A stretch of DNA of 62,687 nucleotides, filler included, from Craspedostauros australis (GCA_030167865.1; 10 parts of 10 records of this genome joined end to end with filler, not necessarily neighbours in it); one strand, 5' to 3'. Counted from the whole stretch's first letter, positions 1-57,869 are shown. Numbers and translations are program-made. Notes: a model not told the origin generated them from the sequence alone.

Positions 1-295
1 AGGGGATCCTGAGAGTTCCATCTGCATCACTGCCTGCATATCGAGTCCAGTCCCGATTCATCTTCATATAGCAAATGCTATCTTGCAAGAAGCTTATCCA
101 TTTGGATATGGGGTGCCCGAAGCAAAGTGCTCGCGACCTGGGTCGCTGCCACATCCCAAAGTGACGTACGTCACTCAGCCTCTCACTTGATCCTGCAATG
201 CCGATATTCCGAGAACCGCTTGTCGGTTGAGTGCCGAAATCCTTCCCCCTCCGGGTCCCAGCTGCTTTCCCTTCTTCGTTCGGACGCCAATCCGA

Positions 296-1852
296 TCAAA
301 GGGCAGCGGAATATCGTAGCAGGGACGGCAGCATCTGCATGACGTCCCCGTAATGTTGTTGCATCTGCAACCTCGGCTGCCTCCCAGCCGCTGCCTCAAA
401 TCGACGCCATCTGTTGTTCAGGTCAACGTCGCGCTCATCTACCTTCTGGTTGATGGCCTGTGTGTTGGAGCCTCTGCGAAAGCTCCGTCCCACTGCGTAC
501 TCCTCAGTGACATCGAGATGCAATGGTATGAGATCTGGTCTGTCATCCTGGATCTCCAAGAGGACTTCATGGATCTTGGGTTGAAGTTTGACCGGCTTGA
601 TTCGATCTCCCATCGAGGATCGAAAGACAGGTCCATCGATCACTGTTCGCTTCTCGTACCAGACCAGCATTCGATCCACCCATGCCGCTGGTTTCAAGCC
701 GGAGCGAGATTCCAGCGCTATTGGCATCAAATGGTATTTCTCTCCAGTCTCCGTCTTGAATCGCCCCAGCAAGGCGATGACCGTGTGTCTCAAGGTTGGG
801 TCCCTGTGGTTCGTGCCCATGTTGTGGTGCTTCCGCATTCCCACGAGATCGCACAGCACCACTTCTTCTGCTCTGAGTCCACCCATGAAAGCGAGCACCG
901 CAAAGAGTGCCGGGAACAAGATGTGCTCCATGTCCGAGTCCGACCACCCGTTCGCGATGCCTTCACACCATCTGTTCTCAAACCGAGCCATGAGCTCGAG
1001 CATTACTCCGATCGAAATAGCCAGGTCAGGGCAGGTTTTGTCTCCCATACGGCTGTGCATTCCCCTGGTGAAGCGCTCAAACCATACCCTGCTGGAGGGA
1101 CTGGTCGTCATCTCGAACTTCTGGGCTTTGCGTACCGCTACTGTCTGTGCATCTGCACTGTTGGCAGAGGCCTGCCAAAGGTTGAAGTAGGATGATCTCA
1201 TCTTCCGAACCGTGTTGAACTGGACCGTTGGCTCGTTCTTTCCTGTGTCGAGCGATCTGTAGAGTAGATTCACCGCAAGAAACATGCCGATCTCGTCTTC
1301 CACTTTCGTTGGGCCCAGAGGTGGGAGATTGTATGTTGGTGACAATCCCAGTGCACTGGACTGCATGACCATCCGGTGTAGGTGAGACCAGTTCCGTGCC
1401 ACGGTGGAGCTCTCTCGACTCCAGAACGCATCGAGGTTCGCTCGCTTGATGAACTTCATGAGAGCGGAGTCCTTTCCGCTTCCCACCACTGGATCCCTCT
1501 GTTGCAAGTTGCGGAAGTGACACAGCTCGCACTGGAAGCTGAGCATAAGGTGGTCCCCAAGGCGGGCGTGCTGGAAGCGGCGTTCGTCCAGCTTGAACTG
1601 CATGACATTGCCATCTTCGTCCACTGGTCTGCGGATCGGGAACGTGTCGTCGCCAAGGAGATGGTAGCAGTTACCGCACCATGTCCCACGACACTCGCTG
1701 TCGAAGCCTCGCTTGTGACAGTAGTTCGCGTAGAACAGCCCTGCTCCCTTCCGCACCTGTCTCCCACACTGCTTGCAACTCCCGCTTAGCTCGTGAAATG
1801 GTGGGTGAGTTTTTGTATTTCCAAGGGGAAGTTTTGCTGAGAGGAAGAACAA
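296..1852 (-). CDS. Tyrosine recombinase of the retroelement with N-terminal Cys/His-rich (Zn-finger-like) region
   Basis: GLRAEE (catalytic R), LLGRFKTE (K), RSFRRGS (HxxR box with H replaced by R), NRW, and C-terminal HYGD (Y). The N-terminus has CKQC..YCHK..CRGTWCGNCY..CELCH. The listed start is TTG and the ORF overlaps the 3' end of pol in the +1 frame. Confidence 0.85.
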   Translation of the reverse strand: MFFLSAKLPLGNTKTHPPFHELSGSCKQCGRQVRKGAGLFYANYCHKRGFDSECRGTWCGNCYHLLGDDTFPIRRPVDEDGNVMQFKLDERRFQHARLGDHLMLSFQCELCHFRNLQQRDPVVGSGKDSALMKFIKRANLDAFWSRESSTVARNWSHLHRMVMQSSALGLSPTYNLPPLGPTKVEDEIGMFLAVNLLYRSLDTGKNEPTVQFNTVRKMRSSYFNLWQASANSADAQTVAVRKAQKFEMTTSPSSRVWFERFTRGMHSRMGDKTCPDLAISIGVMLELMARFENRWCEGIANGWSDSDMEHILFPALFAVLAFMGGLRAEEVVLCDLVGMRKHHNMGTNHRDPTLRHTVIALLGRFKTETGEKYHLMPIALESRSGLKPAAWVDRMLVWYEKRTVIDGPVFRSSMGDRIKPVKLQPKIHEVLLEIQDDRPDLIPLHLDVTEEYAVGRSFRRGSNTQAINQKVDERDVDLNNRWRRFEAAAGRQPRLQMQQHYGDVMQMLPSLLRYSAAL

Positions 1853-4800
1853 GGAAGAGTGTGAGGGGTTCGAGTTGTACAGTATCCCACCAGCTGGCCA
1901 TTCCTGCCTTCACCATCATGTCGAAATCGGATGCCTTCAGACCGATCTTGTACCACCACGCCGTCATGATACGAGGAATGGCGATCACATGCGTTGAGAA
2001 TGGTCGCTTGTGTATGGAGCCGTTCATGAACTCGATCGCTGCTGCAGCCGCTGCTGGTGGAGGTGTCCATACATAGGTGCCTTGGTTGAAATGTGTCTCG
2101 GCCCATCTGTTTGGTGTCAGGAACTCGACATTTGCTGGTGTCCAGGATCGTATCCACTGCTCCAGAGAAGGGGATAGCACCAGTGCCGTGGTCCGCAATG
2201 GCAGGAAGGAATGGATGTCATGGCCGGCCATCACCCCGGCATTCATATCACCGCGAGAGAGGCCGTCCACGCCTGAGTGGATCATTCGCTTGCCCGAGAC
2301 GTGGACGAGGATCACCCGGCATCCACGAAGCATCTCAAATCGACGCAGTCGCAGAACCTGGTTGAAGAGTGCTTGTGATGAGGATGTCCCACGAAAGAAA
2401 GCCCTCTCGGCGGTGGTGTTGTCGGTAAACATGAACACCTCGCTCTGGTACAGTGCAATGGCTGGATCCAGTTTGTACATCGCGTCCACCAAGTTGGTGA
2501 GTTCCCGATAGTTCGAAGATTCCTCCGAGATCCGAACTGGCCAAACGCCGTTGCGCCAGTGGAGATGGCCTCTGATCATGATTCCTGATCCATAGCCTCG
2601 GCCGGACGCGTCCCCAAAACCATATATCACATGCATGGAGGATGGGCTTCTGATTCTTCGTTTGCTTGGCGTGTCGTCCTTCATGAGTTGTCGTAGAGCG
2701 TGCACATCCGATGACAGTCGGGGCACCATCCGCACACGAGCCGGGGCGTTCTCAGTCTTCCGAGCAAACAGTTCTGAATCGGCATCCCAATCGTCGGGAT
2801 CTTCTTCTTCATGCTCTGCAGCTCGTCGTTTCCAGCCCTCCATGTCTCGGTTTGGCCTCCATGAGTCGAGCGTGAGGTGGATACCTTTCAGATAGGGTTT
2901 CATCGCTGGGTATGACCTGGTCACGTACACCAAGAAGCCCCGAATGGACTCCAACTGTTTGTGATCCAGCTTTCCGTCCTCGTTTCCCAGCTGATCGTCG
3001 ATCCACTGCAGGTGCTTCTTGGACTTATCCCACTTGTCTTGGGACACACGAACCGAAACCATGCCGTTGGATGAGCTGACCATGGCTCCAGCCCAGGCTC
3101 CTGGATCTTGGCTGGGTTCTCATCGCTTGCGACTGGCATCCTGCAGTCCGAGCCAGGCGAGCACCGACGACAGCCGTTGAGATGCCCGCCAGCACTGGTG
3201 CGTGGTGCGTCCTGTTGGGCGCATGTCATCCACGTAAGTGAGTAGATCGCAGGCGATAGCCCCATCGCCTCGGCGCTTGTACACCCAGGGTCTTGCGGGG
3301 TCATAATCGCTGCCCCCTGGTAGGTTGAGGACCATGGTATCCCATTGGAACACGTTGGCGTTGTTGTTTCGATCTCCGAACACCGTCTCTCTCGCGACCA
3401 TGGCCCCCAACACAGCGTTATGGGGCGATGACTTCAACCCCATCGCTGATCGGTTCCATCGGTACAATCCATCATCATTGTTCGGATTGTTTGTCAGGTA
3501 GGCTGACATATCGACACCACAGAGTTCCCGGACTTCCTCATGGAGATAGAAGTTCAGAAACATCTCGCCGAAGTCGTTATCGCACATGAATGTCCCACCT
3601 TCGACACACCGCAGCAAGGAATCGACAGTCGGCAAACTGAACCAGGGAACCCACATTTGGGTGTTGAGTCCGCACTTGGTTCTGTCGTATACCATCCGGA
3701 TGTCATCCTCCCCCTTGGGCACGGCAAAGAATGACATGAAGGAAGCAATCTTGCCCTTCTCCAGGTATCCCTTCCTGACCACAGATAAGAGCTTGTCACA
3801 GACCTGTTGGTTCTCTTGTTTTGTTCCACGGGGTCTGTGTGTCTGTCTCCAGCTGATTGCTTTGCTGTGCAGAAATGGAGGAACGCCTTCTTGGATCATG
3901 GATTGGAATTCAGGTGGCCAGTTCCAAAAGAAGGGAGATGACCCATCCTTCCATTCCCACCACGATGCGCTCCCCATCCGGCTGAGTGCATCACGGGCAG
4001 AATCGAGTTGCTTTGTGGTTGGTGTGACACCGGATTGACGCCATCGAATATACGAGCGGAAGATAGCTCGCTTCCACCACCGGAGAGCGAAACCACGCAG
4101 CCGTGGAGCCGCTCGACGGTATGCGTCAACATCGACCTTCCACGACAATCCGGAAAGCAAGTACCCGTCCCATAGCTCGACCGGTGCGGTGGCGCTGTCA
4201 CTCTTGGTTGCGGTTTCATTCCGATCCGCTGTCACTGGATCGTCTGCCTTGTGCGAGTCGCTGACAGTCGTACCAGTAGGTGCAACCGCAGACGTTGACT
4301 CGATGATGGGATCCTCTGGCAGAGCTGTTGATCGTGCTTTGACTCGTCTGGCAGTTTGGCATCCAGCTTGGTCTTGTGGTTTTCGTTTGTGGTCCATGTG
4401 ACATACCCGAGCAAGCATTTCCAAGCTTGCTTGGTACAGCTTGACAGGCGTTTGTTCTTGTCGAATCCATGCCTCGAGCGTGCTGGTGGAGCTGGCGAGG
4501 ATCAGGTCCTCTGGGAAGTCCATCAGCTTCAGCTTCTCCTGCAAACGCAGAGGGCGATTGATCCGACACCCTGGGAGGTAGTTCAGTCTCACCATCTTTG
4601 CGTTGAGATCAAGAGAGGACGAACCGAAGAATCCTCGCCCATCGTACAGGTCATCCCGTATGGATTTCACATACAGCAACCGTGTGCCGAGGTCTGCCTC
4701 CTGTCGATAGGCTGTTCCCTTGATTCCCATCCTGCACGAATCCTGTATGACCTCGTTAGAGACTGCAGTCCTGTTGTGTTTGAACTGGTATACCCGACTG

Positions 4801-5264
4801 TCCGTCGAGTACACCGCAAACGTTTGTTGTATGATGGACGCTCCCCCGCAGCGATGGTGAATTACCTTCTGCCGTTTCTGCCTCCACGAGGAAGGGAACT
4901 TGGCCAGCGGTGTCGATGTCATCACGAGTCGCTGCGGGATGCTCCATATCCGAGCGGATGTTGGCATTGGATGCAAGTCGAGCAGCAGGATATCTCCAAG
5001 CTGTTCCCAGCACATCAACACTACACAATCTATTCGTTCTATACTGAAACCAAGAATAGAAGAGAGTCGCGTGAGCTGGCTGTCCAAACTGGTGTGTCTA
5101 ACCATGATTACTCGGTCCACAGAGAAACCACAATGATGCCCCACCAGTGCCCACCAGGGGAACCGGTCAGTCACCACTGTAGCAATCTGCTTCACTCTTC
5201 CTGAGTAGATCACTCCAGTCCTTTCCGGCTCAACACCTTGATCTGGTACTGATGGGGGTCCCCG
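1671..5264 (-). CDS. Pol polyprotein (MTase-like N-terminus, reverse transcriptase, RNase H, MT-like tail), broken by one in-frame TGA at 3120-3122
   Basis: RT motifs FAVPKG..DIRMVYD, DNDFGEMFLN, MGLKSSP, YVDD. RNase H motifs FGDASG, NYREL, FTDN, VDGLSR. ORFs 3120-5213 and 1671-3083 are in frame: QDASRKR*EPSQDPGAWAGAMVSS. The frame stays open upstream to the gag stop at 5265-5267. Confidence 0.88.
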
Positions 5265-5267
5265 TCA
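5139..5267 (-). promoter_or_regulatory. Putative stop-codon readthrough cassette (UGA-CGG plus 3' stem)
   Basis: The minus strand reads AAC TGA CGG GGA CCC CCA TCA GTA CCA G. The arm at 5257-5243 (CCCCAUCAGUACCAG) can pair with 5157-5139 (CUGGU-GGGC-ACUGGUGGGG). Confidence 0.6.
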
Positions 5268-8021
5268 GTTTTCGGCGCCGCTTGCTGGGGCACCGCTTCC
5301 TCGTCCTCGCCCGCCTTGTTGTCCACCGCCGTAGCCGCGACCTCCGCCTCCGGTGTTGCGCCCGCTGTTTCTGTTGGAAACCAGCTTGTCAACCTGGCTC
5401 GTGAGCTTGGTCAGCGCAGCGTGCGTTTCGTTCACACGTCGTTCCAGTCGATGAACCGCCTCATTGGGGGCTCGCTCATGGAACAGGAAGGAGTTGAAAG
5501 TTGGAGCCATGGATGGGTGCCGCTCCACTCCCTTGGCGGACAGCTCCCGCATGAACTTGTGGGCCCGCAACGCCGCATACAGGGCAATGGAGCACTTCAT
5601 GGGCTCTGATCTTGCGCTGTTGGCGGATGCTCCTGCTGCTCGACGGGTCGCGATCTCGTCGAAAATATCGCGCAGCACTGTCTTCACAAGTCTCCATGCG
5701 CTGGTCTGCATGGTGGCTTGGGTTTCTTCCACCTCTTTGGCAGACGAACCTCCTCCTTGACCCAGAGCCAATGCAAAACGTCCTTGACGACGGTAGAACT
5801 CTGCCATCCAGTTGCTGAGCTCAATCCAGCATGCTCGAGAGCGACTGATCAAGCTGGTTGCCAGGACGTAAGCACTGCCCTTTGTGGCTGGAGGGAAGGC
5901 AAGAGAGACCGCTCTGCGCTGTTGTTCTTCCCAGATTTGCAGCCGGAAGGTAAGGGTGTTGACCAGCCCGGTATGGCTGTCGTTGGGGTCAAACTGCTCG
6001 TACTTGTTGATGGCCGACATGTCGTCCGAGCCCTTCCCGCTGGGGTTGAACACGGATGGGACTGTTGTGCTGAACGACCCGAGGACACGAGCTTGTGCCA
6101 GGTCCTCGTAGCCTCCCTTCTTGGCGGACCCTTGGTTGACGATGGCTTCTCCGGAGCTCACGCCGACGTCACGAGCAGACTCGAGCATCGAGACCAGATC
6201 AAACCACAAGTATGCTGGTGCGTAGGCGCCGATGTTGTCAACCACCCACTCCTCAATCTCCTCCGGAGAGTGGTAAGGGCGATGCTCGATGTACACCACT
6301 TCGTTTCCTGCTCCAGACTTCATTCTGTGGAGTTCCTCTTCGAGACGGTCCAGACGCCCATCAGTGTGGGGCGAGGGCCCTGAGGCTGCAGAACTGTTGA
6401 GACGGCGGTCCAGGTTGTTGAGGCATGCCCAGATGTTCACCTCTCCTGAGGAGTGATGTTCACCTGCCGTGCGAGTGTACAGAGCACCTGTGACGCTGTG
6501 GATGTTGTCCACCCGTTCATCAGAAGCCATCATCCGGTTCTGAAGGTTGGTGCATTGTCGTGCGAACGCGTTGGTGCGTTCCATGCCTTCCACGGCATGC
6601 TTGTCCACCTTGGCCCCCATGTCGGTGAGCTCTTCTTGAGTCGCAGAGCAGCGAGCAGAGAGGTCCACCAGGTTTGGCCAGACTTGGGCGGCCTCCAATC
6701 CGGCGTCTGTCTTCGGTGGGTTGCCCAGAGAGCTCTTCAGACTGGCTGTTCGGAGGTCTGCATCACCAAGGGCGTCGCTTGTTGACTCGGTGAGGACATG
6801 CATCGCGTCGTCGATGCGTTTGATCCCGTCTTGAAGGATCGCGATGGCTGCGACGATGGCCTCGAGTTCTTGTTCTACCTCCACAGGCTCCACTCCAAAG
6901 CCAGCAGCATGGCCTCTCCCAGGATGACCAGGGAGCGCCATGACGTCGACCTTCATTGGAGGGCGCTTCTTTGTGATGGGTGTGGCTGTTCCTGCGATGG
7001 CGGGGTCCTCTGGTCGGATCCGCTTCAGGAATGGCGTCTTCTGGTACGACACAGGCTCGGCAGCCTGTGCAACTTGCTCCACATCGGTGTTTCCTTCCTT
7101 GATAGAGTCGAAGACTTGAACCCAAAGCTCGAACGGGCGCTTGTCCTCGAGTATGGTGCGAATGGAATCAGGAACTTCGATGGCACTCAGCGATGGAGCC
7201 ACAAACGCGCCGCCACGCCCTGCACCTTTCCCAACAGGACGACAGATGAAGAGGCCGCCCACCTCCAGGTCGGCCTTCGCCTTGCCATGGCTGACCACGC
7301 CGCAGTGATTGAAACCCACAGCGACCATGTTCGTGCAGAACGCTTTGCCTGACTTCCCAATGAGACCACCACAGAAATCCAACCCAACAGGCGTCCTTGC
7401 TTCGAAGAGAGAAACGAGTTCCAGCTCCGACGAACCGACCGGATCAACCAGCATCGCGCCATGAGACTCACCACCCAAACTGCTCCCCCCGGAACCCAAA
7501 CCACCGCCGCCAAGCGACAAGGACCCAGCACCATCGAAACCGAGACGAGCCGCGGCCGCGGCGAGGTCGGAAGAAGACGACATGAAAAGAAAAAGAGAGA
7601 GGATCCAAACAATCTCCCGCACCAACTTGCGCTGTTGTTGCCGCACGAGATGTCTGTATTTGTGATCCTGTTCCATGCTCTTGTTGTTGTTGTCCAAGGT
7701 GTTGCGACTGCTGTTGTTGCTCACAGCTCCGTGACTGTTGTTGTTGTTGTTGTTTCTGTTGTCACTGTGGGCGTCCTCGCTCTGTATCGACGGCCTACGG
7801 CGGTCGGACCGTCTAAAATTCCAAGGCTGGTAGGCGTTCACGAGTTCGCCTCTGAGTCCCGATTGCTGCTTGGTGGTGTTGTCGTCCTGTCTGTTTCCTG
7901 TGTGTGTCGTTCCCGGGTTAATTGGTACAACACGGGAGGCAGGTGCCACCCTTCTCCAACCGCCACTTGAATCGTTGATGTGGCTGCCGTGGAAAGGGTT
8001 CCTTCTTGTGCTTTGTGCCAC
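5265..8021 (-). CDS. Gag-like ORF1 of the retroelement (true start may be ATG 7583)
   Basis: First long ORF of the element. It has a Cys/His motif (FCGGLIG..FC..HCGVVSH), a predicted coiled-coil middle and a C-terminal RGG/RG-rich tail (GGGGRGYGGGQQGGRGRG). The call is mainly positional. Confidence 0.7.
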   Translation of the reverse strand: MAQSTRRNPFHGSHINDSSGGWRRVAPASRVVPINPGTTHTGNRQDDNTTKQQSGLRGELVNAYQPWNFRRSDRRRPSIQSEDAHSDNRNNNNNNSHGAVSNNSSRNTLDNNNKSMEQDHKYRHLVRQQQRKLVREIVWILSLFLFMSSSSDLAAAAARLGFDGAGSLSLGGGGLGSGGSSLGGESHGAMLVDPVGSSELELVSLFEARTPVGLDFCGGLIGKSGKAFCTNMVAVGFNHCGVVSHGKAKADLEVGGLFICRPVGKGAGRGGAFVAPSLSAIEVPDSIRTILEDKRPFELWVQVFDSIKEGNTDVEQVAQAAEPVSYQKTPFLKRIRPEDPAIAGTATPITKKRPPMKVDVMALPGHPGRGHAAGFGVEPVEVEQELEAIVAAIAILQDGIKRIDDAMHVLTESTSDALGDADLRTASLKSSLGNPPKTDAGLEAAQVWPNLVDLSARCSATQEELTDMGAKVDKHAVEGMERTNAFARQCTNLQNRMMASDERVDNIHSVTGALYTRTAGEHHSSGEVNIWACLNNLDRRLNSSAASGPSPHTDGRLDRLEEELHRMKSGAGNEVVYIEHRPYHSPEEIEEWVVDNIGAYAPAYLWFDLVSMLESARDVGVSSGEAIVNQGSAKKGGYEDLAQARVLGSFSTTVPSVFNPSGKGSDDMSAINKYEQFDPNDSHTGLVNTLTFRLQIWEEQQRRAVSLAFPPATKGSAYVLATSLISRSRACWIELSNWMAEFYRRQGRFALALGQGGGSSAKEVEETQATMQTSAWRLVKTVLRDIFDEIATRRAAGASANSARSEPMKCSIALYAALRAHKFMRELSAKGVERHPSMAPTFNSFLFHERAPNEAVHRLERRVNETHAALTKLTSQVDKLVSNRNSGRNTGGGGRGYGGGQQGGRGRGSGAPASGAEN

Positions 8022-8871
8022 AACCTATGCGCTACCAGATCTAGCTGTGAATGCCTTCGGAACGTGCAGGTTGCAAAAGCAAGAGGCACCACCACAACCA
8101 CGTCAAGCCGCAGCTTCACACGGATATGTTTGTTAGCGCGAAGAGAACCTTTCGTCTTTGGCCAAGGAAGGAAGAAGCACCGCTTTTCAAGCAGAAGAAA
8201 GTTACCTGGAACCAAGCTTCGCACTCTGTACTGGAGTCTCCAACTGGTACATCCGCTGAGTGAAGCTGAATCAATGACGACGTGTTCAGGGTGAGGGGCG
8301 GAATTCTCCTTTGTCGTTGGATTAGTGACCGGCGGCGAAGGCGACGCCAGCAGATCAGGCACATGGTGGTCGTGGGGCTTCCCCAGCCGCTCTGCGACTA
8401 CGAGGATTGTGTGATGACACCACGAGACGATCCTTCCACGAATGTCAATGTCAATCTGTCCGCTTTGTGCGGTGTCGCGAGATGTGACTTTTGTGAAGGA
8501 AGAATAATGAGAAAGAACGAGCCATGCGACCTCGCTGGAGCGGAGATCGCCTCCCATGGGCGTTTGGAGCTCTTCGACAAAACGAAATACTGCACTCTTC
8601 GTAGTAGGTCTACGCATGTGTGGTGTGGCAAGGCAGCGGAGAAACGAGTGTTTCAACTCTCTGTTTGGTCGATGGGACGGAGTGGGGCCTTTGGTTAAAA
8701 CATGGATGCCTGTCATCCTGTGCTCACAATTAGTATTCCGCTTTCTTCTCAGTCTTTGACTCCATCATCGATCATCAGGTCACCTCCAGCGTCACCCAAC
8801 CGAGCACAATCCCTCGCTCCCACCAACATCAAACAACCATCTATCCATCTCACTCATCGAAGACTCCGAAG

Positions 8872-18378: not shown

Positions 18379-18900
18379 CGTCGAGCAAGGGAGTTGTATG
18401 ATGTTTACTCTCGAGAAGAGCACGTATTGTGTTTGGGTATCGTGGGTCGAAGTTTGTGCAATGTGTGTTGTCGTCTTCTCGAGGGAGAATCTGAGCGAAC
18501 GCAGATGGCGAACATTTCTGAGTCAAGGATACGCACGTGCACGTGACAAAGTGGAGTCGCGAATCTTTCCTCACACTCGCACGACTCGTTTGAGTGACGG
18601 GACCTGAAGATCGCATTCGAAACACCCACAATGACACAGGCCGCGCTAAGACTTGTGCGCAAAGAGAGGAAGAGAGGACCAAGACAACAAGGCAACAAGA
18701 CAACAAGACAACAACACACACCATTCACTCCCATACTCGAGCACATCAGCAACAGACATCGAGTTACCACACAGTGCATCGTACTCATCCTAATACTAAT
18801 ACAACCTATTGAAGACACACGATCGATATCTCGGCCATAGATAGCTCAGACTACGTGCTTCCTCAACAGCCAATCCAACGCCATCGACCATCCCCTCAAA

Positions 18901-19647
18901 ATGCCGAATGTCACTGACCAACAACTCCTTCGTGCTGCCAGGGTAGGTGACTTGTTGGTGTTGAAGGAATGGAAGAAGCAGAACAAGACGCAGCATGAAG
19001 GAGTTGATGTCAACCAGGTTAAAGACTGGCTTGGTTGGACTCCCCTTTTTTGGGCATGCTGCAATGGCCACCTGGAGTGTGTGCAGTACCTCATCGAATC
19101 ATGTGGGGCCAATGCCAACTGCAAAACCAGCAAAGGCTTCACTCCCCTTCATGCGGCATGCCTCAGCGGCCACCTGGAGTGTATCGAGTACCTCATGAAA
19201 TCGTGTGGAGCTGACACCAACTGCCAAAACAACAATGGTGACACTCCCTTTCATTGGGCATGCCACAACAACCAGCTGGAGTGTGTGGAGTCCCTCATCC
19301 GAGGACTTTCACCTTCACCTTCAGCTCACCCACAACTGCAACAACTGCAGCAACTCTTACAACAAAACGAGCAAGAGAAGAAACAACCACAAGAACAGTT
19401 GAGAAAGCAGTTGAAGCGAAAGAAGCAAGAGAATGAACACAAACATAGCAACCACAAGAGGACAACATCAGTATTGGAGAAGACTGGCTCAGATCCTTCC
19501 AAATCGAGAACAGGGCAAACACCATCTTCTTGTGTGGACAGGGCGACCGACAACAACCAATCAAACAAACGCGGAAGTCCTGATGATCACCGTCCCATCC
19601 ATTGTGACACTGATCGACAAAGGAACCCAACATCAGCACGCGAATGA
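18901..19647 (+). CDS. Ankyrin-repeat protein (about 3 repeats) with Q-rich tail, family copy A
   Basis: TPLxxACxxGHLEC..YL..SCGA repeats of 34 aa. Paralog of the ORFs at 26389 and 31804. Confidence 0.85.
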   Translation: MPNVTDQQLLRAARVGDLLVLKEWKKQNKTQHEGVDVNQVKDWLGWTPLFWACCNGHLECVQYLIESCGANANCKTSKGFTPLHAACLSGHLECIEYLMKSCGADTNCQNNNGDTPFHWACHNNQLECVESLIRGLSPSPSAHPQLQQLQQLLQQNEQEKKQPQEQLRKQLKRKKQENEHKHSNHKRTTSVLEKTGSDPSKSRTGQTPSSCVDRATDNNQSNKRGSPDDHRPIHCDTDRQRNPTSARE

Positions 19648-25890: not shown

Positions 25891-26388
25891 AGCTCTCTCT
25901 GTTTCCGATGACTTTCACGTTGTTTGCTTCGGATTGGTGTTGCGTTGATTGTGGCCAAACGAGAACTCTGTTGTGGTGCTTCTTTCTTGTTGTTGGTCGC
26001 ACGCATTTTCGTGATGGATGGGAACAGAAAGATCCAATCCGCGCGAACCAGACGCGTTTGATCAAGAGAAGGAGACAAACACAGGCAAACAGAAGGAGGA
26101 GACCATGCGAACAAGACAACAACACACACATCACCCAACACCATACTTGAGCACATCAACAACAGACATCGAACTGCCACTCATATTCATCACACAGCGT
26201 ATGGTACTCATACTCATACTAATACAAGCTGTTGCATACACCACCATCGATATCTCTTCCATAGGCAGCTCAGACCACAGACATCCTCGACAGCCAATCC
26301 AACGTAAATCGTCCAACGTCCAACGTCTATCGTCCAACGTCCAACGTCTATCGTCCAGCAACCATCGACCATCCACCACACTCTCAAA

Positions 26389-27027
26389 ATGCCGAGTGTT
26401 ACGAACAAACAACTCATTGATGCTGCCAAGGCAAGTGACTTGTCGGTGTTGAAGGCGTGGAAGAAGCAGAACAAGACGCAGAATGAAGGAGTTGATGTCA
26501 ACAAGGTTACAGACAGCTTTGGTTACACTCCCCTTCATGTGGCATGCCGCAACGGCCACCTGGAGTGTGTGAACTATCTCATCGAATCATGTGAGGCGAA
26601 CATCAACTACAAAAACAACCATGGTTGGACTCCCCTTCATCATGCATGCGACTATGGCCACCTGGAGTGTGTGAAGTACCTCATCGAATCATGTGAGGCG
26701 AACATCAACTGCAAAGACAACAATGGTGAGACTCCCCTTCATCGCGCATGCTACAACGGCTACCTGGAGTGTGTGAAGTACCTCATCGAATCATGTGGGG
26801 CAAACATCAACTGCAAAGACAACCATGGTGACACTCCCCTTCATCACACATGCGACGATGGCGACCTGGAGTGTATCGAGTACCTCATCGAATCATGTGG
26901 AGCGAACATCAACTGCCAAAACGACCATGGTGAGACTCCCCTTCATGAGGCATGCTACAACGGCCACCTGGAGTGTATGGAGTCCCTCATCAGAGGACTT
27001 TCGCCTTCAGCTCACCCACAACTGTAA
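26389..27027 (+). CDS. Ankyrin-repeat protein (5 repeats), family copy B
   Basis: 102-bp tandem DNA repeats encode TPLHxACxxGxLECVxYLIESC.ANIN. Confidence 0.9.
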   Translation: MPSVTNKQLIDAAKASDLSVLKAWKKQNKTQNEGVDVNKVTDSFGYTPLHVACRNGHLECVNYLIESCEANINYKNNHGWTPLHHACDYGHLECVKYLIESCEANINCKDNNGETPLHRACYNGYLECVKYLIESCGANINCKDNHGDTPLHHTCDDGDLECIEYLIESCGANINCQNDHGETPLHEACYNGHLECMESLIRGLSPSAHPQL

Positions 27028-30362: not shown

Positions 30363-31803
30363 GGATAGTGATGTCCGGACTTGATGGTTGTGGTTGCGCA
30401 ATGGTGAGGCGAACAGCGCAACGAGTGGGGGGAGGATGAAGACCACGATGGAGCTGGTGTGTGTCGAAAAGGGATGACTTGTTGCTGAGATCAGATCAAT
30501 GCGACGGGCTTTTTCGATGTGATTGATTGATTGCTTGGATGATCGTAGTCCCTTGATCTCATCTCTGTCTGCTTTTTATGAAGCGATCATCTTCTGTTTC
30601 GTGGTCGTTGGTGGTGGTATCCCGTGCTCCGTTTCACGCAGCGTGCATGGCATTACGTTGATTGTTGTTTCACGATGTTTCTCATTTCATATTGCTTCCG
30701 CGATGTCGCTGTGATCACCCGATCTACTTTGGCATCAACGTGAACATCAGCTTGAACATTGTCTTGAACGTGATCGTGGCCGTGACCGCGGCCGTGGCCA
30801 GCCACAGAAGGAGAAAGTTCATCGTGGGCGCAGGTGTCGGAAGTCATCATTGCCCAAACATCTTTGGAACGTGGAGACGATCGAAGATCCTGCGAGCGTG
30901 GTACGACTATGTTGCAAAGAATGAGAGTCAACACGAATCTGGAGAAACCGCTGGTATTACGTGTTGGATCGTGCCCGCTCTGTGGCGCCGAAATTGGTCA
31001 CGGCCATCTTCTGCACTGCTGCTGCTGCTGTTGTTGTTGTTGTTCTCATCTGTTTTCCAGGAAGGTACGATGGATCGGTTGCGTTCTTGTAGTGCCATGG
31101 CGACTGATGCCCCTCCTGAACGTAATTCTCCGCGTGTGCGTGGACGAGAGGAAGAACACGGCGGAAGTGTTCGTGCTGTGGGATCTCCGGCTGCTGATGC
31201 TACTACTTTGGATCTCTCTACTCGTTGGTCGATACTTCTGCTGGTACCACTTCTGCTGATAGCACTTCTACTCGTATGCACATCATCATCATTGTGTTTG
31301 TTGCAGCGTCGTCAGTTCCGTGGCTGGTGGTGCAATGGGGCATCCATGATCGTCATACGAGTGCTCATCTCACACCACGCTTTTCCTCACTCTCTGTGTC
31401 ATTCTTGTTCTCACGATGTTGTTTGTTGTCTTCTTGAGGGAGAAGCTCAGCGAACGCAAATGGCGAACATTTCTGAGTCAAGGGATCCGCGGATCCCTCC
31501 TCACACTCGCACGACTTGTTTGAGTGATGGGACCTCAAGATCGCATTCGAAACACTCACAACGACACAGGCCGCGCTACGACTCGTGCGCAAAGAGAGAG
31601 ACAAAGAGAGGACCATGCGACCAAGACAAGACAACAACACACACCATTCCGCCCCATACTCGAGCACACTAACAACAGACATCGAGTTGCCACTCATAGC
31701 AATACAAGGTATTGAAGACACACGATCGATATCTCTGCTGTAGATAGCTCAGACCACGCACTTCCTTAACAGCCAATCCAACGCCATCGACCATCCCCTC
31801 AAA

Positions 31804-32643
31804 ATGCCGAATGTCAAAGACCAACAACTCATTGATGCTGCCAGAGCAGGTGACTTGTCGGTGTTGAAGGAATGGAAGAAGCAGGACGAGACGCAGAACG
31901 AAGGAGTTGATGTCAACAAGGTTACAGACTGGGTTGGTTCCACTCCCCTACATGCGGCATGCCGCAACGGCCAGCTGGAGTGTGTGAAGTACCTCATCAA
32001 ATCATGTGGGGCGGACGTCAACTGCCAAAACAACCCTGGTGACGCTCCCCTTCATTTCGCATGCGACCGTGGCTACCTGGAGTGTGTGAAGTACCTCATC
32101 AAATCATGTGAGGCGAACATCAACTGCAAAGACAACCAGCGCAACACTCCCCTTCATCGGGCATGCTCCAACGGCCACATGGAGTGTGCGGAGTACCTCA
32201 TCGAATCATGTGGAGCAAACATCAACTGCCAAAACAACAATGGTTCCACTTCCCTTCATTGGGCATGCATGTTCGGCAAGCTGGACTGTGTCAAGTACCT
32301 CATCGAATCATGTGGTGCTAACATCAGCTACAAAGACAACCATGGTGACACCCCCCTTCATTCGGCATGCTTTGGTGCCCAGTTGGAGTGTATCGAGTAC
32401 CTCATCGAATCATGTGAGGCGAACATCAACTGCCAAACCAACCATGGTTGGACTCCCCTTCATTACGCATGCAGTGATGGCTACCTGGAGTGTATCGAGT
32501 ACATCATTGGATCAGCCAATGCCGATGTCGACATACAAAACAACGGCAACAACACACCCCTCGATTTGCTCGATGCAGAAGATTACGCCAAAATCAAGAG
32601 ATTAATCATTAAGCGTCCCAGCCACCGCAACCCACAACTGTAA
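31804..32643 (+). CDS. Ankyrin-repeat protein (6 full repeats plus cap), family copy C
   Basis: Intact 279-aa ORF built from 34-aa ankyrin units. Confidence 0.92.
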   Translation: MPNVKDQQLIDAARAGDLSVLKEWKKQDETQNEGVDVNKVTDWVGSTPLHAACRNGQLECVKYLIKSCGADVNCQNNPGDAPLHFACDRGYLECVKYLIKSCEANINCKDNQRNTPLHRACSNGHMECAEYLIESCGANINCQNNNGSTSLHWACMFGKLDCVKYLIESCGANISYKDNHGDTPLHSACFGAQLECIEYLIESCEANINCQTNHGWTPLHYACSDGYLECIEYIIGSANADVDIQNNGNNTPLDLLDAEDYAKIKRLIIKRPSHRNPQL

Positions 32644-32745: not shown

Positions 32746-34114
32746 CTACGAGACCTTCAGCATGCAGGAGCAAATCGAAGCGTTCCAAAACATCGACATC
32801 ATTCTCACGCCACACGGTGCACAGGAGAGCACCTTGTTTTTCATGCCGCAGTGTTCGTCAGTCATCGAAGTCTTCCCCCACACCTTCGACTTTCGACGGT
32901 GGTTCGGGTCGTTGGCTGCACTATCCAATCTTAACCATACCGTCATCTACCTTGGGAAGGATATCGACGAAGAGAGGAAGGAGGCCATGAAGACACTGGA
33001 ATCTCGAAGAATAGCGCGCGAACAGCTATTATGCACGCCGATCGATACGATCCTGGAAGCTTTGTCGCAGCAGATCCACAATTGGAGACAGCGCTGCGGT
33101 TTTACGTCTACGAGTATGCCAGACCTCAACTAGAAAGAAGCCTAGCATTTCATGCCCGCAGTTTCATTTGCGGCGCAGCCGCTGCTTGAGTTCCTGCCCT
33201 CCGCATTCTCGTCTTCAACGATGATTTCTCTCTCTCTCTCTTCTGGACTGTCTTATCGTAGAGTGCATATAATAGCTTCCGATTGGATCTGAACATATTG
33301 CATTATTGATATGATGTCATGCTCGACTCTGTTTAGCTCGTACAGTGCGAGTATGTTCCATACGAGCTATTCTACGAGTTTGTACAATGATCTCTGATGA
33401 TGTTACTCTTTCCTCTGCAGGTTTCTCTCTGGATTTCAGAACTCCATTTCTGTTTTTTTGTGGCGTGTGCTGCATTCTGTTTTTTGTTCTTTCCTGTTGT
33501 GCTTCGCCATTTGTCATTCGCCGCCTTCTCCATTGAACTTCGGACAATCTCGTCTCACCACACGAATCAAGTGTGCGAAGCAACAAACTGGTGAAATTCG
33601 CGGTTTTTCCTTTTGGAGAGGGCGCCATTCTTTCATGTTCCATCGGTGCTCACATCATGGTCTGCGATTGTTTCTTTCCTGACTCGTACCTCCTCCCCTT
33701 TCGTGGTCACAATTTGCCACGACTTCATGGACGGGAAATACTCCCGAAGCATGCGCTGACCACCAACGGGGGAGAACAGATGGGTCGAGGGTGGAATAGA
33801 TCGACGATGTGGGCGGATGGCATCCGTGCTCCTCGCTGTCATAAATCCAATCATCCAATCGTCGCAAGCGGCACGACCACCAACAACCATGGTCGATTCC
33901 ACTCAGATCATCATCCCAACTCATGCACATGCGCATGAGCATGCAAGTGACGACGACAGCTCATCTGCAAAGAGCACGAACATTGGTGTTGGCATTGGCA
34001 CCGATGTTGTTGTTGTCAGCCACCACGATGGCTATTATGACGACGATGACAACGACGCTGCCCCAATCATGGACGGAAGGGGAGCAGACAAGCCTTCCTT
34101 CGGCACCATCAACA
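32746..34114. repeat. Reverse-complement overlap with 36899-38267 (unmerged contig overlap; includes the GT61 3' end)
   Basis: Apparently identical 1369-bp sequence in opposite orientation at two contig ends. Confidence 0.95.
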
Positions 34115-34470: not shown

Positions 34471-37400
34471 TGGTCCGGTCGGATCGATTGTATCAAACAG
34501 ACTCGTACTCGTACTCTTACTCGCACGCATACCATACAGCAATGCTGTTGCAATACATTGGAGAGGCGTACGTGGGAATGCGAAATGCGCAACTCCACCG
34601 CGATGCATGTCACCGCCGATGTAGTGCATACGTACGAGCTACACATGGCGACTAGAGCCAAGAACCGTGGTCAATAGCGTGATTGACCATCGAAGATGAT
34701 GCAACTCAGAATTGAATGATACCACAAGCTCCCTTTTCAGAGCCTGGCGGAGCGCACATGGAATCAGCAGTTCCATAGGAGCAACCAATAATAGTCGTAC
34801 GATACTCAATGGATACATACTCATACAAGAATAAACCATAATAATTCATTCGATAAAGTTAGTAATGTGATACAACCTACTCGTAAATGACACAAGCACA
34901 TGGAATTGCGATGAGAATAGGTCGGGATCAGTTCACATCCTTTGTGGGTCCTACGAGTACGATGGTTGGCGGCCACGCACTCCACGTTGCTCGTTGTACA
35001 CGTACGACGATGGCTGCACGGAGTGTGCTTTGGCAAAGTGGGTTTCATGACACGCTTGCACAGGTCGTGTACCATGCAGCATACGTGCTCGGTGATGGTC
35101 TCTACACCGAACGTACTTCTCTTCGCCCGTGCGTGCATGAGCGGTCAGGTACCTATGCGATTTCATGCTTCCCGCTGTGCCCGCCCACACGAACGAACAA
35201 CCACCACGACCGTAGACAAAGCTGCGGCAAACAAACAAAAAACCATGATTCGGTGGTTGGAGCGACCAGTGAGAACAACCTTGAAACTTCTTCATTGCGG
35301 CAAATGCTGACGAATTTGGCTCCTGTGGAGTTCGCCGGCCACCACAACGAAACTGTCCAATAAACACAAACGCGAAACCAGTCACAGAACGGATGCCTCA
35401 GTCACAACTTCGAAGCCTCAACCAGTGTGCCTCTTGTTGAGCTACTACTATGTCGCACCCACTCTTCGACTATTGGAGGGGTTCGAGTGGCCCCAGAACT
35501 TGGGTACTGAGACACACCAGGATGACTCAATGCCAGGGGGAGCCCCGCAATAGAGACTCGTCTGGGCGCAATGGAGACAGTCACTTTCGTGAGGATTAGG
35601 GTCTTTCCAATGCCCATGTGACGTCACGATTCGCTTTCTTCCTTTCCTGTCGCCCACACTGTTTCGTCAAACTGTTTGTTTCCTCATGGTACCAACATTG
35701 GTTTTCGCGTTTTTCCCAATCTGAACAAACATTATTGATTGACTGTCCGGATCTCTCTCTTTTTGTAACTTGTGTGTGCCAATCAATGCATGATTCTTGT
35801 CTCTTCGTGTTGCTTTCTGTCCAAACAGCAGCCACCGCTCAAAAATACGGACGATAATGCCAAAAATTGAGTACTTTGATACGTGATCTACTAGCGTTGT
35901 TGGCAACGAGGAGGAGCGTTGGTTTCTTGTGTGTGGCAATCCACGCTCTACTCTGAACACAACCATTCAGAAACTCGTTGACAAGACCACCAATCGACAC
36001 TGCCTCCTCCCTCCCACCCTTCCAACTCAACTTCATCCGTGGAGCAATTGTGTAGCTCATGCAGCAGTGGGATCGAGAGTGAAAGAAGAAGCATGCCATG
36101 CCAAGAACCCAAGCCATGCCAACAAACAATCCCCAACAATAAATATACTTCAACACAACAGTCCCCCACCCTCTCATACTCAGCTGTGCCATACTTGGCA
36201 TTCAACAAACACCCATCCATCCATCCCTGTCACATCAATGTGCGTGTAGAGATATCATTGACACCTGTGTCGAGATGTACATTCGTGTATGTGCATCGTT
36301 CACCCGTTTTCTTTTTACTCATGTACAGATGGTACAACTACATTCGTGTCAATAGTGAACTGTGATTTGCCAACATCACATCATGAAATGGAACACACGA
36401 AAACGAACTGAATTTCTGGAGGAAATCTGTAAGCACGGATTTCTGAGATTATGAGGAACATCGTCTGTCCATCCATCAACAAAACATGTGATATCAAGTC
36501 AGGCTTGATATACTTCCCAACTAAACCTCAAATGACGATACCCTTGCTGACCCATTGCATCATCAATGGAATGTGGAATGACAAGGACCTTGGAATCTGA
36601 CAGCTGACATCAACAAGATGTCATTGTGTCACCACATTGGCATCTGTCTCCACATCAGATCAAGAAGGCAAAGATTCAATGACCAAGGGACATCAAGATC
36701 ATAAGTATGCAAGGAGGAATACAGTGTGGGTGCATTGACAATTACTCATGGAGTAGTGAGCTTGTAGATAACGAAATGCGGAGTATGCATCGAATACANN
36801 NNNNNNNNNNNNNNNNNNNNNNNNNNNNNNNNNNNNNNNNNNTTAATTAATTAANNNNNNNNNNNNNNNNNNNNNNNNNNNNNNNNNNNNNNNNNNNNTG
36901 TTGATGGTGCCGAAGGAAGGCTTGTCTGCTCCCCTTCCGTCCATGATTGGGGCAGCGTCGTTGTCATCGTCGTCATAATAGCCATCGTGGTGGCTGACAA
37001 CAACAACATCGGTGCCAATGCCAACACCAATGTTCGTGCTCTTTGCAGATGAGCTGTCGTCGTCACTTGCATGCTCATGCGCATGTGCATGAGTTGGGAT
37101 GATGATCTGAGTGGAATCGACCATGGTTGTTGGTGGTCGTGCCGCTTGCGACGATTGGATGATTGGATTTATGACAGCGAGGAGCACGGATGCCATCCGC
37201 CCACATCGTCGATCTATTCCACCCTCGACCCATCTGTTCTCCCCCGTTGGTGGTCAGCGCATGCTTCGGGAGTATTTCCCGTCCATGAAGTCGTGGCAAA
37301 TTGTGACCACGAAAGGGGAGGAGGTACGAGTCAGGAAAGAAACAATCGCAGACCATGATGTGAGCACCGATGGAACATGAAAGAATGGCGCCCTCTCCAA

Positions 37401-37879
37401 AAGGAAAAACCGCGAATTTCACCAGTTTGTTGCTTCGCACACTTGATTCGTGTGGTGAGACGAGATTGTCCGAAGTTCAATGGAGAAGGCGGCGAATGAC
37501 AAATGGCGAAGCACAACAGGAAAGAACAAAAAACAGAATGCAGCACACGCCACAAAAAAACAGAAATGGAGTTCTGAAATCCAGAGAGAAACCTGCAGAG
37601 GAAAGAGTAACATCATCAGAGATCATTGTACAAACTCGTAGAATAGCTCGTATGGAACATACTCGCACTGTACGAGCTAAACAGAGTCGAGCATGACATC
37701 ATATCAATAATGCAATATGTTCAGATCCAATCGGAAGCTATTATATGCACTCTACGATAAGACAGTCCAGAAGAGAGAGAGAGAGAAATCATCGTTGAAG
37801 ACGAGAATGCGGAGGGCAGGAACTCAAGCAGCGGCTGCGCCGCAAATGAAACTGCGGGCATGAAATGCTAGGCTTCTTT

Positions 37880-39343
37880 CTAGTTGAGGTCTGGCATACT
37901 CGTAGACGTAAAACCGCAGCGCTGTCTCCAATTGTGGATCTGCTGCGACAAAGCTTCCAGGATCGTATCGATCGGCGTGCATAATAGCTGTTCGCGCGCT
38001 ATTCTTCGAGATTCCAGTGTCTTCATGGCCTCCTTCCTCTCTTCGTCGATATCCTTCCCAAGGTAGATGACGGTATGGTTAAGATTGGATAGTGCAGCCA
38101 ACGACCCGAACCACCGTCGAAAGTCGAAGGTGTGGGGGAAGACTTCGATGACTGACGAACACTGCGGCATGAAAAACAAGGTGCTCTCCTGTGCACCGTG
38201 TGGCGTGAGAATGATGTCGATGTTTTGGAACGCTTCGATTTGCTCCTGCATGCTGAAGGTCTCGTAGTAATAGACTGGTGGCGTGTAGGCCAAGCCAAAC
38301 CGATCCTTGATGGCGGCGGATATGTTTTGGGACTGCAGCAGTCGACGTGTGAATCTCCGGCTGAGAATCCCAATCCGCGGCATGTATTCGCTCGATTGCT
38401 CCATCAATTGCTGCTGCTCTGCGGGAGTCATGTTGAAATATAGTTCGGTATCATCAACTCTGAGATCTGTGGAGCAGTGCGGCATTGAGAGTTTGGATCC
38501 TGGAATGCTCTCGAGCAATGTCTGCTTGAAGGTTTCCAGATCGTCGCTGTTGGCCATGTTGTAGTCGACGAATGAAAATGTCTGCGCCACGAGAAGCTGC
38601 TTGAGATCTGACGTATTACCGTACATCTCAACGTACTCTGCCTTCGTCATTTCGTAGATAGGGGTGTTTGCATATTTGAGCATTTCAAGGAGTGCCCGGT
38701 TGAAAGGATGCTTCCTGATTTGGTGGAGCCTTCCGACGTCGATCACCATTGTGCGATTTGCATCAGGGAAGCGTTCCCACAGGGACCAGCACTCGAGCAT
38801 CTGTTGCAGGAAATGCGGGAAGTGGTGCACGATGCTTGTTCTGAAGAAAAAGCATGCCACCATCTCGAAAGGTTCACCAGTAATCGACTTTCGCGTTTTC
38901 CATGCTTTGTTGAGACTCCCGTGGACCTTGCCCAGAAATTGCTCCGGACGATACCGATTGGGGTAGTCGGTGGTCATGTAGGTCGATTCGAGACTGGAGT
39001 TGGTGATGGTGCAGGTGCGGGGTTCCGGATCTGCGAATTGCGGGTCGTTGTGATGCTGTTTCATGAAGTCTGGGAACGCAGAGATTGATCGAGGAGGGTC
39101 GAGTGGTGGCGGTGGACCCTGTGCTAGGCTCTGTTGCGAAAGGCCCACCGAATCGCCGATAGTCGACGAATGGACTGCTTGGTCAACGAAGCTCGTCATG
39201 ATCGAGGGCTGAATGATGGGACTTTCATCTATGGCAGGCTTCGGCCGGACGTTGGGATCAAATAGAGGCATGGCGGAAAACATGATGATGGCCACAACGG
39301 AGACCATCGGCGTGACCTGTCTTCCTTTCTTCTTATGTGCCAT
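37880..39343 (-). CDS. Glycosyltransferase family 61-like protein
   Basis: N-terminal TM anchor, HHFPHF, IGILSRR..RRL, and SMQEQI..FQNIDIILTPHGAQ....FMP..S.VIEVFP. Confidence 0.85.
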   Translation of the reverse strand: MAHKKKGRQVTPMVSVVAIIMFSAMPLFDPNVRPKPAIDESPIIQPSIMTSFVDQAVHSSTIGDSVGLSQQSLAQGPPPPLDPPRSISAFPDFMKQHHNDPQFADPEPRTCTITNSSLESTYMTTDYPNRYRPEQFLGKVHGSLNKAWKTRKSITGEPFEMVACFFFRTSIVHHFPHFLQQMLECWSLWERFPDANRTMVIDVGRLHQIRKHPFNRALLEMLKYANTPIYEMTKAEYVEMYGNTSDLKQLLVAQTFSFVDYNMANSDDLETFKQTLLESIPGSKLSMPHCSTDLRVDDTELYFNMTPAEQQQLMEQSSEYMPRIGILSRRFTRRLLQSQNISAAIKDRFGLAYTPPVYYYETFSMQEQIEAFQNIDIILTPHGAQESTLFFMPQCSSVIEVFPHTFDFRRWFGSLAALSNLNHTVIYLGKDIDEERKEAMKTLESRRIAREQLLCTPIDTILEALSQQIHNWRQRCGFTSTSMPDLN

Positions 39344-56218: not shown

Positions 56219-56907
56219 CAGAGGCTCCCTTGCTCAATCGCACATTCCCACCTCCAACGCAAAATCCTGACGAAGACAAAGAAGAGCGACCGTTTCGCAA
56301 AGATCCGACAAATCGAACCTACGTCACCTCATATGTCGGCAGCCCAGTCAATGCACCGCGGGAGATGAGGCGTCAGATGATCGGACGATTGCAACGCCTT
56401 GATAGAAATCCTGAGGCACGAGCAATCAACAACAGCACGCTCAAGATATTCACATCCTTCTACGGATCTGCGTGGAGAGACATCATGGCAGACTCCTGCT
56501 TCTCCTTCTGTCCGCGCGGTTATGGACGAACATCGTACCATGTCATGGAGACCCTGCAGATGGGCTTGATTCCGATCCAGGTTTACCTGGACATACCATG
56601 GATCCCATACATCGACTTGATGGAGCGAGAGGAGATGATCATCACCATCAAGCATGGCTTCGTGGACAAGTTTATGCGAGAGACACTTCTGACCTCGCTT
56701 TCATCACCATCAGTAGCAGCACAGAACAAGAGCTGGACTTTCGAGAAGATTCGCGAAGCAGAGCAGCGCATCCTGTCGTACCGACAAAGCCATTTCACAC
56801 CTGAAGGTGCCATGAACCAGATCCAAGCCTTCATGTTGGACCCGTCGACATCGGACTTGCGTTGTCAGAAGTTGCCGAAGACGCCTCGAGGTGACTTTCT
56901 GTTGTGA
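56219..56907 (+). CDS. 3' part of the exostosin-like gene (duplicate of 58203-~58890)
   Basis: Identical translation to the C-terminus of the 653-aa ORF. Confidence 0.8.
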
Positions 56908-57869
56908 AGTGTCGGTGTATCCAAGAGTGAGCATCCTCGTTGATGGATGTGAATGGAATGCGATGGATAGAAAGTGTCCTCCTTCCACCTTGTCGGTGCT
57001 AGACGAAGCCACTCGCAGCCAAACACAGGATTGGGCAGGGTGACGATCCGCAACCGGACATCTCTCCGGATCTAGAGAGATCCTAGTTAGGTGCGAGGTC
57101 GAAGTCCTCGCCTCACAAGTCGCAGACCTACCATTTTCTGTAGCGAAGAAAAGATGTGATCTTCCTTCGCATTTACGTCGAGACAAGTGCATGTATGCAC
57201 TGCGAATTGGATTGGGGATGCACTTCAAGGAACATCCACCTGCGATATTGCTCGTCCAAAGAACGCTGGTGAGCGACGACGCCATTGCGTCCGGATGTCC
57301 ATGCGAAGAGGAAGTGATTGTGAACAATCCATGGCAGACGGGACATGATCGGGGGGACAGGCCTGGATGAGTTGGATTGTATTCTACAAAGCAATACCAT
57401 AGTATGCGAGGGGAGTGCCAGATATGGATACTCGTATGGTATGCACCAGACAGGTAGGTGAGGAATTGCACGTGCATCACACCATACGAGTACAACTATG
57501 GCACGTGGCGAGTATAATACAATAAAATATAATACAATATTACAATAGATAATAATAGATCCCAGTAAGAGAATAAAGAGTACTCTGGAGAACAGAACGC
57601 AAGGGATGAAGAAGTATTCTACTGTATGCCACTTTGCCGTGCCGCATAGTGCCATAGAAGAATACTCGAGACAGTGAGGCACTGTGGTGTTGTCAGCTGG
57701 GTTGGTGGGTATGGTCTGGTCCCACAGTTCGTACTCGTAGGTCGTAGGTAGTACGAGTATGATGTAATAGGTCGTATTATAATAATAGTTCGTGCGAGTA
57801 TCCGTGGTGATGCTGAATTGGAATGTGTGGGGTGCGCGGTTGCGTGGTTGGCAACAGGGGTTGGGGTGC

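Follow-up and report, generated by a model that had tools for sequence, protein, structure and literature searches.

A recurrent in-frame UGA codon points to programmed Gag–Pol recoding in a family of tyrosine-recombinase retroelements

Stop-codon readthrough and −1 frameshifting between gag and pol are classical in retroviruses and in retrotransposons with long terminal repeats (LTRs). The readthrough structure of murine leukaemia virus (MuLV) lies approximately 8 nucleotides (nt) downstream of its stop codon, and the type II readthrough of alphaviruses and several plant viruses combines a UGA-CGG or UGA-CUA context with an extended 3′ stem-loop. The expression of Pol relative to Gag is essentially undescribed for DIRS-order elements, the accessible parts of the reviews mentioning only separate or overlapping open reading frames (ORFs). 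The element described here lies in a window of 62,687 nt, filler included, from Craspedostauros australis (GCA_030167865.1), in which ten parts of ten records of the genome are joined end to end. A single retroelement lies on the minus strand in the first 8 kb of this window. It is a DIRS-order (tyrosine-recombinase) retrotransposon, as assigned from its reverse transcriptase (RT) and recombinase genes, and its gag-like ORF ends with a UGA in frame with pol.

Programmed Gag–Pol recoding in the family of this element is well supported by comparison of the junction between relatives, and we consider it probable. Most ribosomes would stop at the gag UGA and yield Gag. In a minority of ribosomes a near-cognate tRNA would decode the UGA and translation would continue in frame, giving a Gag–Pol fusion. 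The original prediction that the family makes both products by readthrough is strongly supported in this comparison by the recurrent UGA, the open linker, the missing AUGs, the −1 signals of sister lineages and a trend towards downstream stems; the stem as stimulator stands as a proposal.

The gag/pol junction in the window and in its relatives

The proposed readthrough site is the gag stop codon, a TGA at 5267–5265 on the minus strand (5265..5267), followed by CGG at 5264–5262. Translation confirmed that this stop is in frame with pol, as had been predicted, and that 17 open codons (RGPPSVPDQGVEPERTG) separate it from a GTG at 5213. The absence of an ATG near the start of pol was also borne out: the first in-frame ATG is found 53 codons past the stop and lies downstream of the first conserved pol motif.

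Protein relatives were searched for with a junction query composed of 400 gag residues, an X at the stop and 481 pol residues, which was compared with a library of 1.84 billion representative proteins. 760 matches were obtained at expectation values (E) of up to 1e-3. The best 150 of the 760 comprised a gag-like class, in which the matched query range ended by residue 397, at the C-terminus of proteins of 620–800 amino acids (aa), and a pol-like class, in which it began at residue 428 or later, 40–50 residues into proteins of 1200–1300 aa. No best stretch among these 150 crossed the gag/pol stop. The best protein identity to the window element in this library was 45% (a short fragment), with at most 39% in the strongest matches.

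A metagenome scan gave 577 pattern-matching stretches and 268 coding relatives, and the best 80 of the 268 correspond to 79 distinct loci. Both gag and pol were matched at 45 of the 79 loci, with gag upstream of pol at 39 of them. In the remaining six gag lay downstream, these contigs being permuted or tandem; L001 and L054 were resolved by hand. Locus L067 has a TGA at the junction and its contig ends 12 codons later, and L033, L036 and L042 run off their contigs. The nearest relative of the window element shows 49% identity in the RT core, and collections of viral contigs and genome contigs contained no relatives closer than those found in this way. The two ends of the L001 contig (L001:1-130 and L001:8720-8850) encode the same pol peptide, so the contig is either circularly permuted or part of a tandem array; elements that pass through circular intermediates are expected to leave such contigs.

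At 21 loci gag and pol are separated by a single in-frame stop, which is TGA in every case; 19 of these loci were scored by script, L001 and L054 were scored manually, and L026 and L027 duplicate each other. L040, L047 and L053 carry three in-frame TGAs each, spaced within 20–29 codons, and two degenerate loci (L041 and L075) have pol in frame 0 with further stops. The pol gene is in the −1 frame at 13 loci and in the +1 frame at two degenerate loci (L028 and L070). A sense codon at the stop or an out-of-frame junction in homologues had been named beforehand as contrary evidence: no locus has gag and pol fused, and an out-of-frame junction does occur at the 13 loci with pol in the −1 frame.

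A 41-row tree built from the RT core places the in-frame UGA in approximately 12 deep lineages, and three changes of state between readthrough and frameshifting suffice. The clade of the window element on this tree also includes L005, L001–L003, L025 and L055. On this comparison of sequences the junction TGA is ancestral and not private to the window copy.

The loci with pol in the −1 frame carry a signal of a different kind. An A_AAA_AAN heptamer in the gag frame, within a short gag/pol overlap, is present at 11 of the 13, and the other two look degenerate. The heptamer is A_AAA_AAC at eight loci (L012, L016, L030, L038, L044, L061, L066 and L073), and the variants AAG, AAT and AAA occur once each among L039, L050 and L062. 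A significant stem 5–10 nt past the heptamer, as determined by the stem test described below, was found for six of the 11 (L012, L016, L030, L038, L039 and L061; Fisher 4.7e-9). The sequences of these sister lineages fit a −1 programmed frameshift signal, namely an X_XXY_YYZ heptamer in the overlap together with a 3′ structure. The family would therefore recode at its gag/pol junction generally, so that the in-frame UGA is most naturally interpreted as a readthrough site.

RNA structure and translation across the junction

The readthrough would probably be stimulated by RNA structure beginning 7–9 nt past the stop, the candidate in the window being a long-range pairing of 5257–5243 with 5157–5139 on the minus strand. 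The predicted stem was recovered, with 15 base pairs, one of them G–U, and a 4-nt bulge at 5152–5149, and it encloses 83–85 nt. Its 5′ arm (5243..5257; CCCCAUCAGUACCAG) lies within the variable linker and codes for PPSVPD. It is separated from the stop by the 7-nt spacer CGGGGAC (5258..5264), which starts with the CGG context, so pairing begins at the 8th nt; spacers of 5–10 nt are seen in the stem-bearing relatives. The 3′ arm (5139..5157) consists of 5157–5153 and 5148–5139 and overlaps the conserved FPWW codons, including the invariant W38. A competing local hairpin (5127..5183, same strand), present in the minimum free energy (MFE) structures, shares the sequence of the 3′ arm.

The stem test was performed by pairing a 16-nt arm beginning 5–10 nt past the stop with the next 200 nt. 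The window gave −24.2 kcal/mol compared with −15.0 ± 3.0 at in-frame control positions of the same element (n = 1143, empirical p = 0.005), and z = −3.26 against 200 dinucleotide shuffles of the downstream 212 nt (p = 0.005, the floor of the test). Across the family, p < 0.05 was obtained in nine of 20 elements using in-frame control positions of the same locus (Fisher 9e-10) and in nine of 20 using dinucleotide shuffles (Fisher 2.7e-7). The negative control at pol stop codons gave one of 24 (Fisher 0.76), and a simpler test, which ranked the first 60 nt by MFE, returned Fisher 1.8e-4. A stem 5–10 nt after the UGA is thus suggested as a family trend.

Stems of two shapes were observed. Compact hairpins start 7–8 nt past the UGA in L010, L024, L043 and L049; L024 and L043 have 13 pairs in common, of which none is broken and three show double compensatory changes, and covariation was seen only between these two loci. 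In the extended type, found in the window, L025 and L013, a GC-rich helix closes off 83–100 nt. The covarying stem that had been expected from RNAalifold was not recovered: the linkers of L001/L002/L003 and those of the five-member L024 clade do not align, so neither set yielded a usable consensus.

Several observations weigh against programmed readthrough, or against the part of the stem in it. According to the accessible text of PMC2194720, the gag-UGA-pol arrangement of Tca2 with its 3′ pseudoknot gave no readthrough in a yeast reporter, so the layout alone is no proof of readthrough. The conservation of the 3′ stem foreseen in the original prediction holds as an enrichment in nine of the 20 elements with an in-frame UGA, and the other 11 have no significant stem in this test. 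No relative is near enough for covariation of the window stem, and its 3′ arm is partly set by the conserved FPWW codons. The pair probability of this stem is 0.89–0.97 when 5264–5130 is folded alone, 0.13–0.25 with 10–30 nt of extra 3′ flank, 0 with 70 nt and approximately 0.002 in a 201-nt context with upstream sequence, where the constrained MFE is −68.8 and the free MFE −78.0. The stem is unreliable in free folding because its 3′ arm is also within the strong local hairpin at approximately 5183–5127. Three further points, treated below, are the varying CGG/CUA context after the UGA, the frequency of TGA at the ends of pol ORFs and a nonsense codon in the pol of the window copy.

We infer both the actual bypass of the stop by ribosomes and the action of the window stem as its stimulator from these comparisons. 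In favour of the stem, the complementarity is unusual by two controls (p = 0.005 in each) and is placed at the canonical 7-nt spacing, this spacing and the stem type recur in other lineages, and a ribosome paused at the stop would melt the competing upstream pairing. The low pair probability (0–0.25 with at least 10 nt of 3′ flank or any upstream sequence), the 11 relatives without a significant stem and the insufficiency of the Tca2 junction sequence for readthrough (accessible text of PMC2194720) favour instead a UGA that is bypassed without the long-range stem as driver, the stimulus being the local hairpin at 5183–5127, other cis elements, a protein factor or simply a leaky UGA in the host. 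This is a serious alternative, which we regard as possible but somewhat doubtful.

The UGA-CGG or UGA-CUA context did not survive as a family signal, since the window alone has CGG and L026/L027 alone have CUA. Of the in-frame UGA-C expected in homologues, the UGA recurs in 21 relatives, and among 21 sequences the stop is followed by C in nine, T in six, A in five and G in one (binomial p ≈ 0.1 for C). TGA accounts for 22 of 22 in-frame junction stops, compared with six among the 13 loci of the −1 group (over all loci, Fisher p = 2.6e-4; Fisher p = 0.005 after reduction to 12 lineages). The constancy of TGA is weaker than it appears, because TGA is the commonest ordinary stop in these elements; it ends 17 of 24 pol ORFs, and 12 of 12 lineages would then have P ≈ 0.016. 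The invariable TGA was for this reason rejected as a proof of selection on its own.

The linker between the UGA and W38, the first invariant pol residue, was translated for 19 elements (1358 codons) and contained no stops in frame versus 78 and 84 in the other frames. Linkers vary in length and sequence even among the close relatives L001, L002 and L003, yet all are in frame, and at 18 loci no stop interrupts the 329–563 codons that lie between the UGA and the RT core. As far as sequence can tell, such openness would be expected if ribosomes translated continuously through the stop, but not if pol were initiated independently. It makes it unlikely that pol is translated apart from gag, by internal or non-AUG initiation, by termination and reinitiation, or from a subgenomic or spliced RNA, with the in-frame layout being incidental. 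An ATG is indeed found 0–2 codons past the stop in L024, L026 and L018, Tca2 has a promoter at its junction according to the accessible text of PMC2194720, and the accessible text of PMC3266345 describes the ORFs of classic DIRS elements as separate or overlapping. However, the linkers are free of in-frame stops from the first codon past the UGA, and the frames at the junction are not random, with 26 in frame, 13 at −1 (11 with slippery heptamers) and two, degenerate, at +1. Moreover, the stretch between the UGA and W38 is entirely free of ATG in four elements, namely the window, L003, L025 and L055. In L005, L017 and L077 the sole linker ATG lies 3–8 codons before W38.

The clade with three UGAs (L040:1422-1481, L047:2565-2624 and L053:1647-1733) has kept this number between diverged copies. 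The second TGA at all three loci, as well as the third in L053, is followed by CCY TGG/TTG CC. Low-efficiency readthrough at every one of the UGAs can hardly explain this clade, which speaks for special decoding of UGA in the host: the codon would be read as selenocysteine, or would have been reassigned to sense or become ambiguous, and would not be a leaky stop. We nevertheless judge such decoding to be very improbable, since the gag, pol N-domain and RT frames of these elements contain no other UGA, their ORFs are open over hundreds of codons in the standard code and most pol ORFs end with UGA. The Rfam search at the junction returned no relevant family and no match resembling a selenocysteine insertion sequence (SECIS).

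The idea that the junction TGA is a decay mutation of the window copy in a once-fused gag–pol ORF has next to nothing to recommend it beyond a clear nonsense codon elsewhere in this copy (TGA 3122–3120, an arginine in ten of ten homologues), since a TGA occupies the same junction in 21 relatives, none of them fused, and the gag homologues of the protein library end there too.

That second in-frame TGA (3120..3122, minus strand) is within pol. The conserved arginine that it replaces belongs to an ARKRR motif in all ten homologues of alignment A1 covering the column. It is most likely a CGA-to-TGA nonsense mutation private to the window copy, which because of it is probably inactive but otherwise intact. 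The argument for programmed recoding at the junction rests on the family, so the state of this copy does not affect it.

Gene order and encoded proteins

The proposed gene order is gag, UGA, Pol (linker, a domain resembling DNA methyltransferases, RT, RNase H-like and C-terminal domains) and an overlapping recombinase ORF, all on the minus strand. With E up to 10, Pfam returned only noise for the four ORFs of the window, with no integrase or protease in any of them, so the identities of the genes were taken from relatives and from folds.

The gag-like ORF (5268..7583) was defined by translation and comprises 772 codons from the likely start ATG at 7583; an in-frame ATG at 7676 precedes this codon and the frame is open from 8021. 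Its C-terminal 370 residues align to the C-termini of proteins of 620–800 aa from the library (for example P0002, E = 2.4e-59). The pol of the window is collinear with pol homologues of 1211–1301 aa. It consists of an N-terminal part (4212..5264), made up of the variable linker and the methyltransferase-like fold, an RT core with a YxDD motif (3123..4211) and a remaining part in the same frame (1674..3119), which ends at a TAA at 1673–1671. This last part was defined by translation and contains a C-terminal domain and motifs that we tentatively take to be those of RNase H. ORF3 (299..1852) overlaps the end of pol in a different frame, and the window edge lies only 295 nt past it.

The RT core was identified using alignment A6, in which D328 and D329 are invariant and Y326 is present in at least 90% of rows. 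RVT_1 matched ten of the 23 aligned RT members (best E = 4.8e-5). A search of the PDB sequences with the RT profile gave weak matches to the Ty3 and MMLV RTs (E = 0.026–0.17), and ten of its 11 matches were RTs (E = 0.026–0.82). Searches of the PDB sequences with ORF3 or with the whole-pol profile gave no matches.

ORF3 is kept at full length in most relatives. R327, K366, R459, R460 and W482 are invariant in alignment A2, and Y501 is present in at least 90% of rows. The AlphaFold2 model of ORF3 (predicted local distance difference test, pLDDT, of 79.4) gave Cre, XerH and lambda integrase as top Foldseek matches, with probabilities of 0.99–1.00 for the top twelve listed and E values from 1.4e-3. 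These conserved residues and the fold of the model identify the element as a tyrosine-recombinase retroelement. The first ~120 residues of ORF3 are cysteine-rich: C54, C108 and C111 are invariant, C29 and C62 are nearly so, and an FQCDLCHFRN motif is present. Their pattern suggests a zinc-binding DNA-binding module. In L051:3-3974 pol and the recombinase apparently form one continuous frame of 1323 codons; elsewhere in the family they are separate overlapping ORFs.

The N-terminal domain of Pol, which follows the variable linker within the ~350 residues after the stop (alignment A3), was also modelled with AlphaFold2, with a pLDDT of only 64.9 and a predicted template-modelling (TM) score of 0.66. 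The top Foldseek matches were 8yf3, M.HhaI, Dnmt2 and M.HaeIII (E = 2e-6 to 2e-4, TM 0.40–0.53), and the matches span 320–350 columns, nearly the whole domain. No Pfam DNA_methylase match was found for it at E up to 10, and A3 has no invariant cysteine column. Several relatives have PPG at the position where we would presume the catalytic Pro-Cys motif of a cytosine-C5 DNA methyltransferase (DNMT) to lie. On the evidence of the model, this DIRS-like element may carry a DNMT that has diverged or lost its activity.

A repeat scan of the window found no repeat touching 1–8100 and no further copy of the element. Elsewhere in the window a 102-nt tandem repeat occurs in three arrays (18881–19324, 26369–27016 and 31784–32635), together with several dispersed direct repeats. 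Perfect inverted repeats of 1369 nt (32746–34114 / 36899–38267) and 838 nt (56219–57056 / 58054–58891) are also present. A dinoflagellate spliced-leader motif was looked for without a match, and no tRNA genes were found.

Comparison with known systems

A wider proposition, which we hold to be evenly balanced, is that a widespread DIRS-like family of aquatic protists, with a Pol comprising a DNMT-like domain, RT and RNase H, makes Gag–Pol by recoding, its lineages switching between UGA readthrough with a stem 7–9 nt downstream and −1 frameshifting at A_AAA_AAC, and one clade having three UGAs. As the original prediction had supposed, no description of readthrough or frameshifting at the gag/pol junction of DIRS, Ngaro or PAT elements was found in full-text searches of the literature, although an earlier mention may exist. 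Gag/pol recoding is not described in the accessible portions of the texts on tyrosine-recombinase elements consulted (PMC3266345, PMC8547959, PMC6681497, PMC3783388 and 10.64898/2026.05.21.726589). If the proposition is true, these would be the first recoding signals described for tyrosine-recombinase retroelements.

The Gag–Pol fusion would bring the enzymes into Gag assemblies, and it would stay unprocessed because the family has no detectable protease. Such protease-less elements would then package their enzymes as uncleaved Gag–Pol, like totiviruses. The alternation of a conserved UGA and 3′ stem with a −1 slippery site would mean that the ribosome determines the Gag:Gag–Pol stoichiometry, as it does in retroviruses, and that the fusion is the functional unit even without a protease. 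The junctions would also provide natural, diverged protist readthrough cassettes for the study of UGA leakiness, including compact hairpins, extended stems and triple UGAs, and annotations of such elements should connect gag with pol through the stop.

In its domain content the family resembles SymbioDIRS-Dnmt3 of Symbiodinium, a DIRS-like element which, in the accessible text of its description, has a cytosine-methyltransferase domain inside the Pol ORF, an RT only poorly matched by Pfam models and, in an ORF of its own, a tyrosine recombinase (de Mendoza et al., 2018; PMC5890265); that text is silent on the gag/pol junction. The two differ in that the DNMT-like domain of the window family is seen by fold only and not by Pfam, and its catalytic Pro-Cys is not conserved.

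At the junction, the window shares with type II viral readthrough its UGA-CGG and a candidate long-range stem from the 8th nt, L026/L027 share the UGA-CUA, and L013 and L025 share extended stems. It differs in that CGG/CUA is not conserved in the family and in that these elements are DNA-integrated protist retroelements and not RNA viruses. As in LTR retrotransposons, related lineages have either an in-frame stop or a −1 slippery heptamer, and Tca2 has a UGA followed by RNA structure at the same place (accessible text of PMC2194720); LTR retrotransposons differ in encoding a protease and a DDE integrase. MuLV, a gammaretrovirus, likewise has gag and pol in one frame with a single stop between them and a Gag–Pol fusion made at low frequency, as given in the accessible text of PMC4178896. 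Whereas MuLV uses a UAG and a compact pseudoknot and has a protease and a DDE integrase in Pol, the window family has a UGA, simple or extended stems, no detected protease and a tyrosine recombinase for integration.

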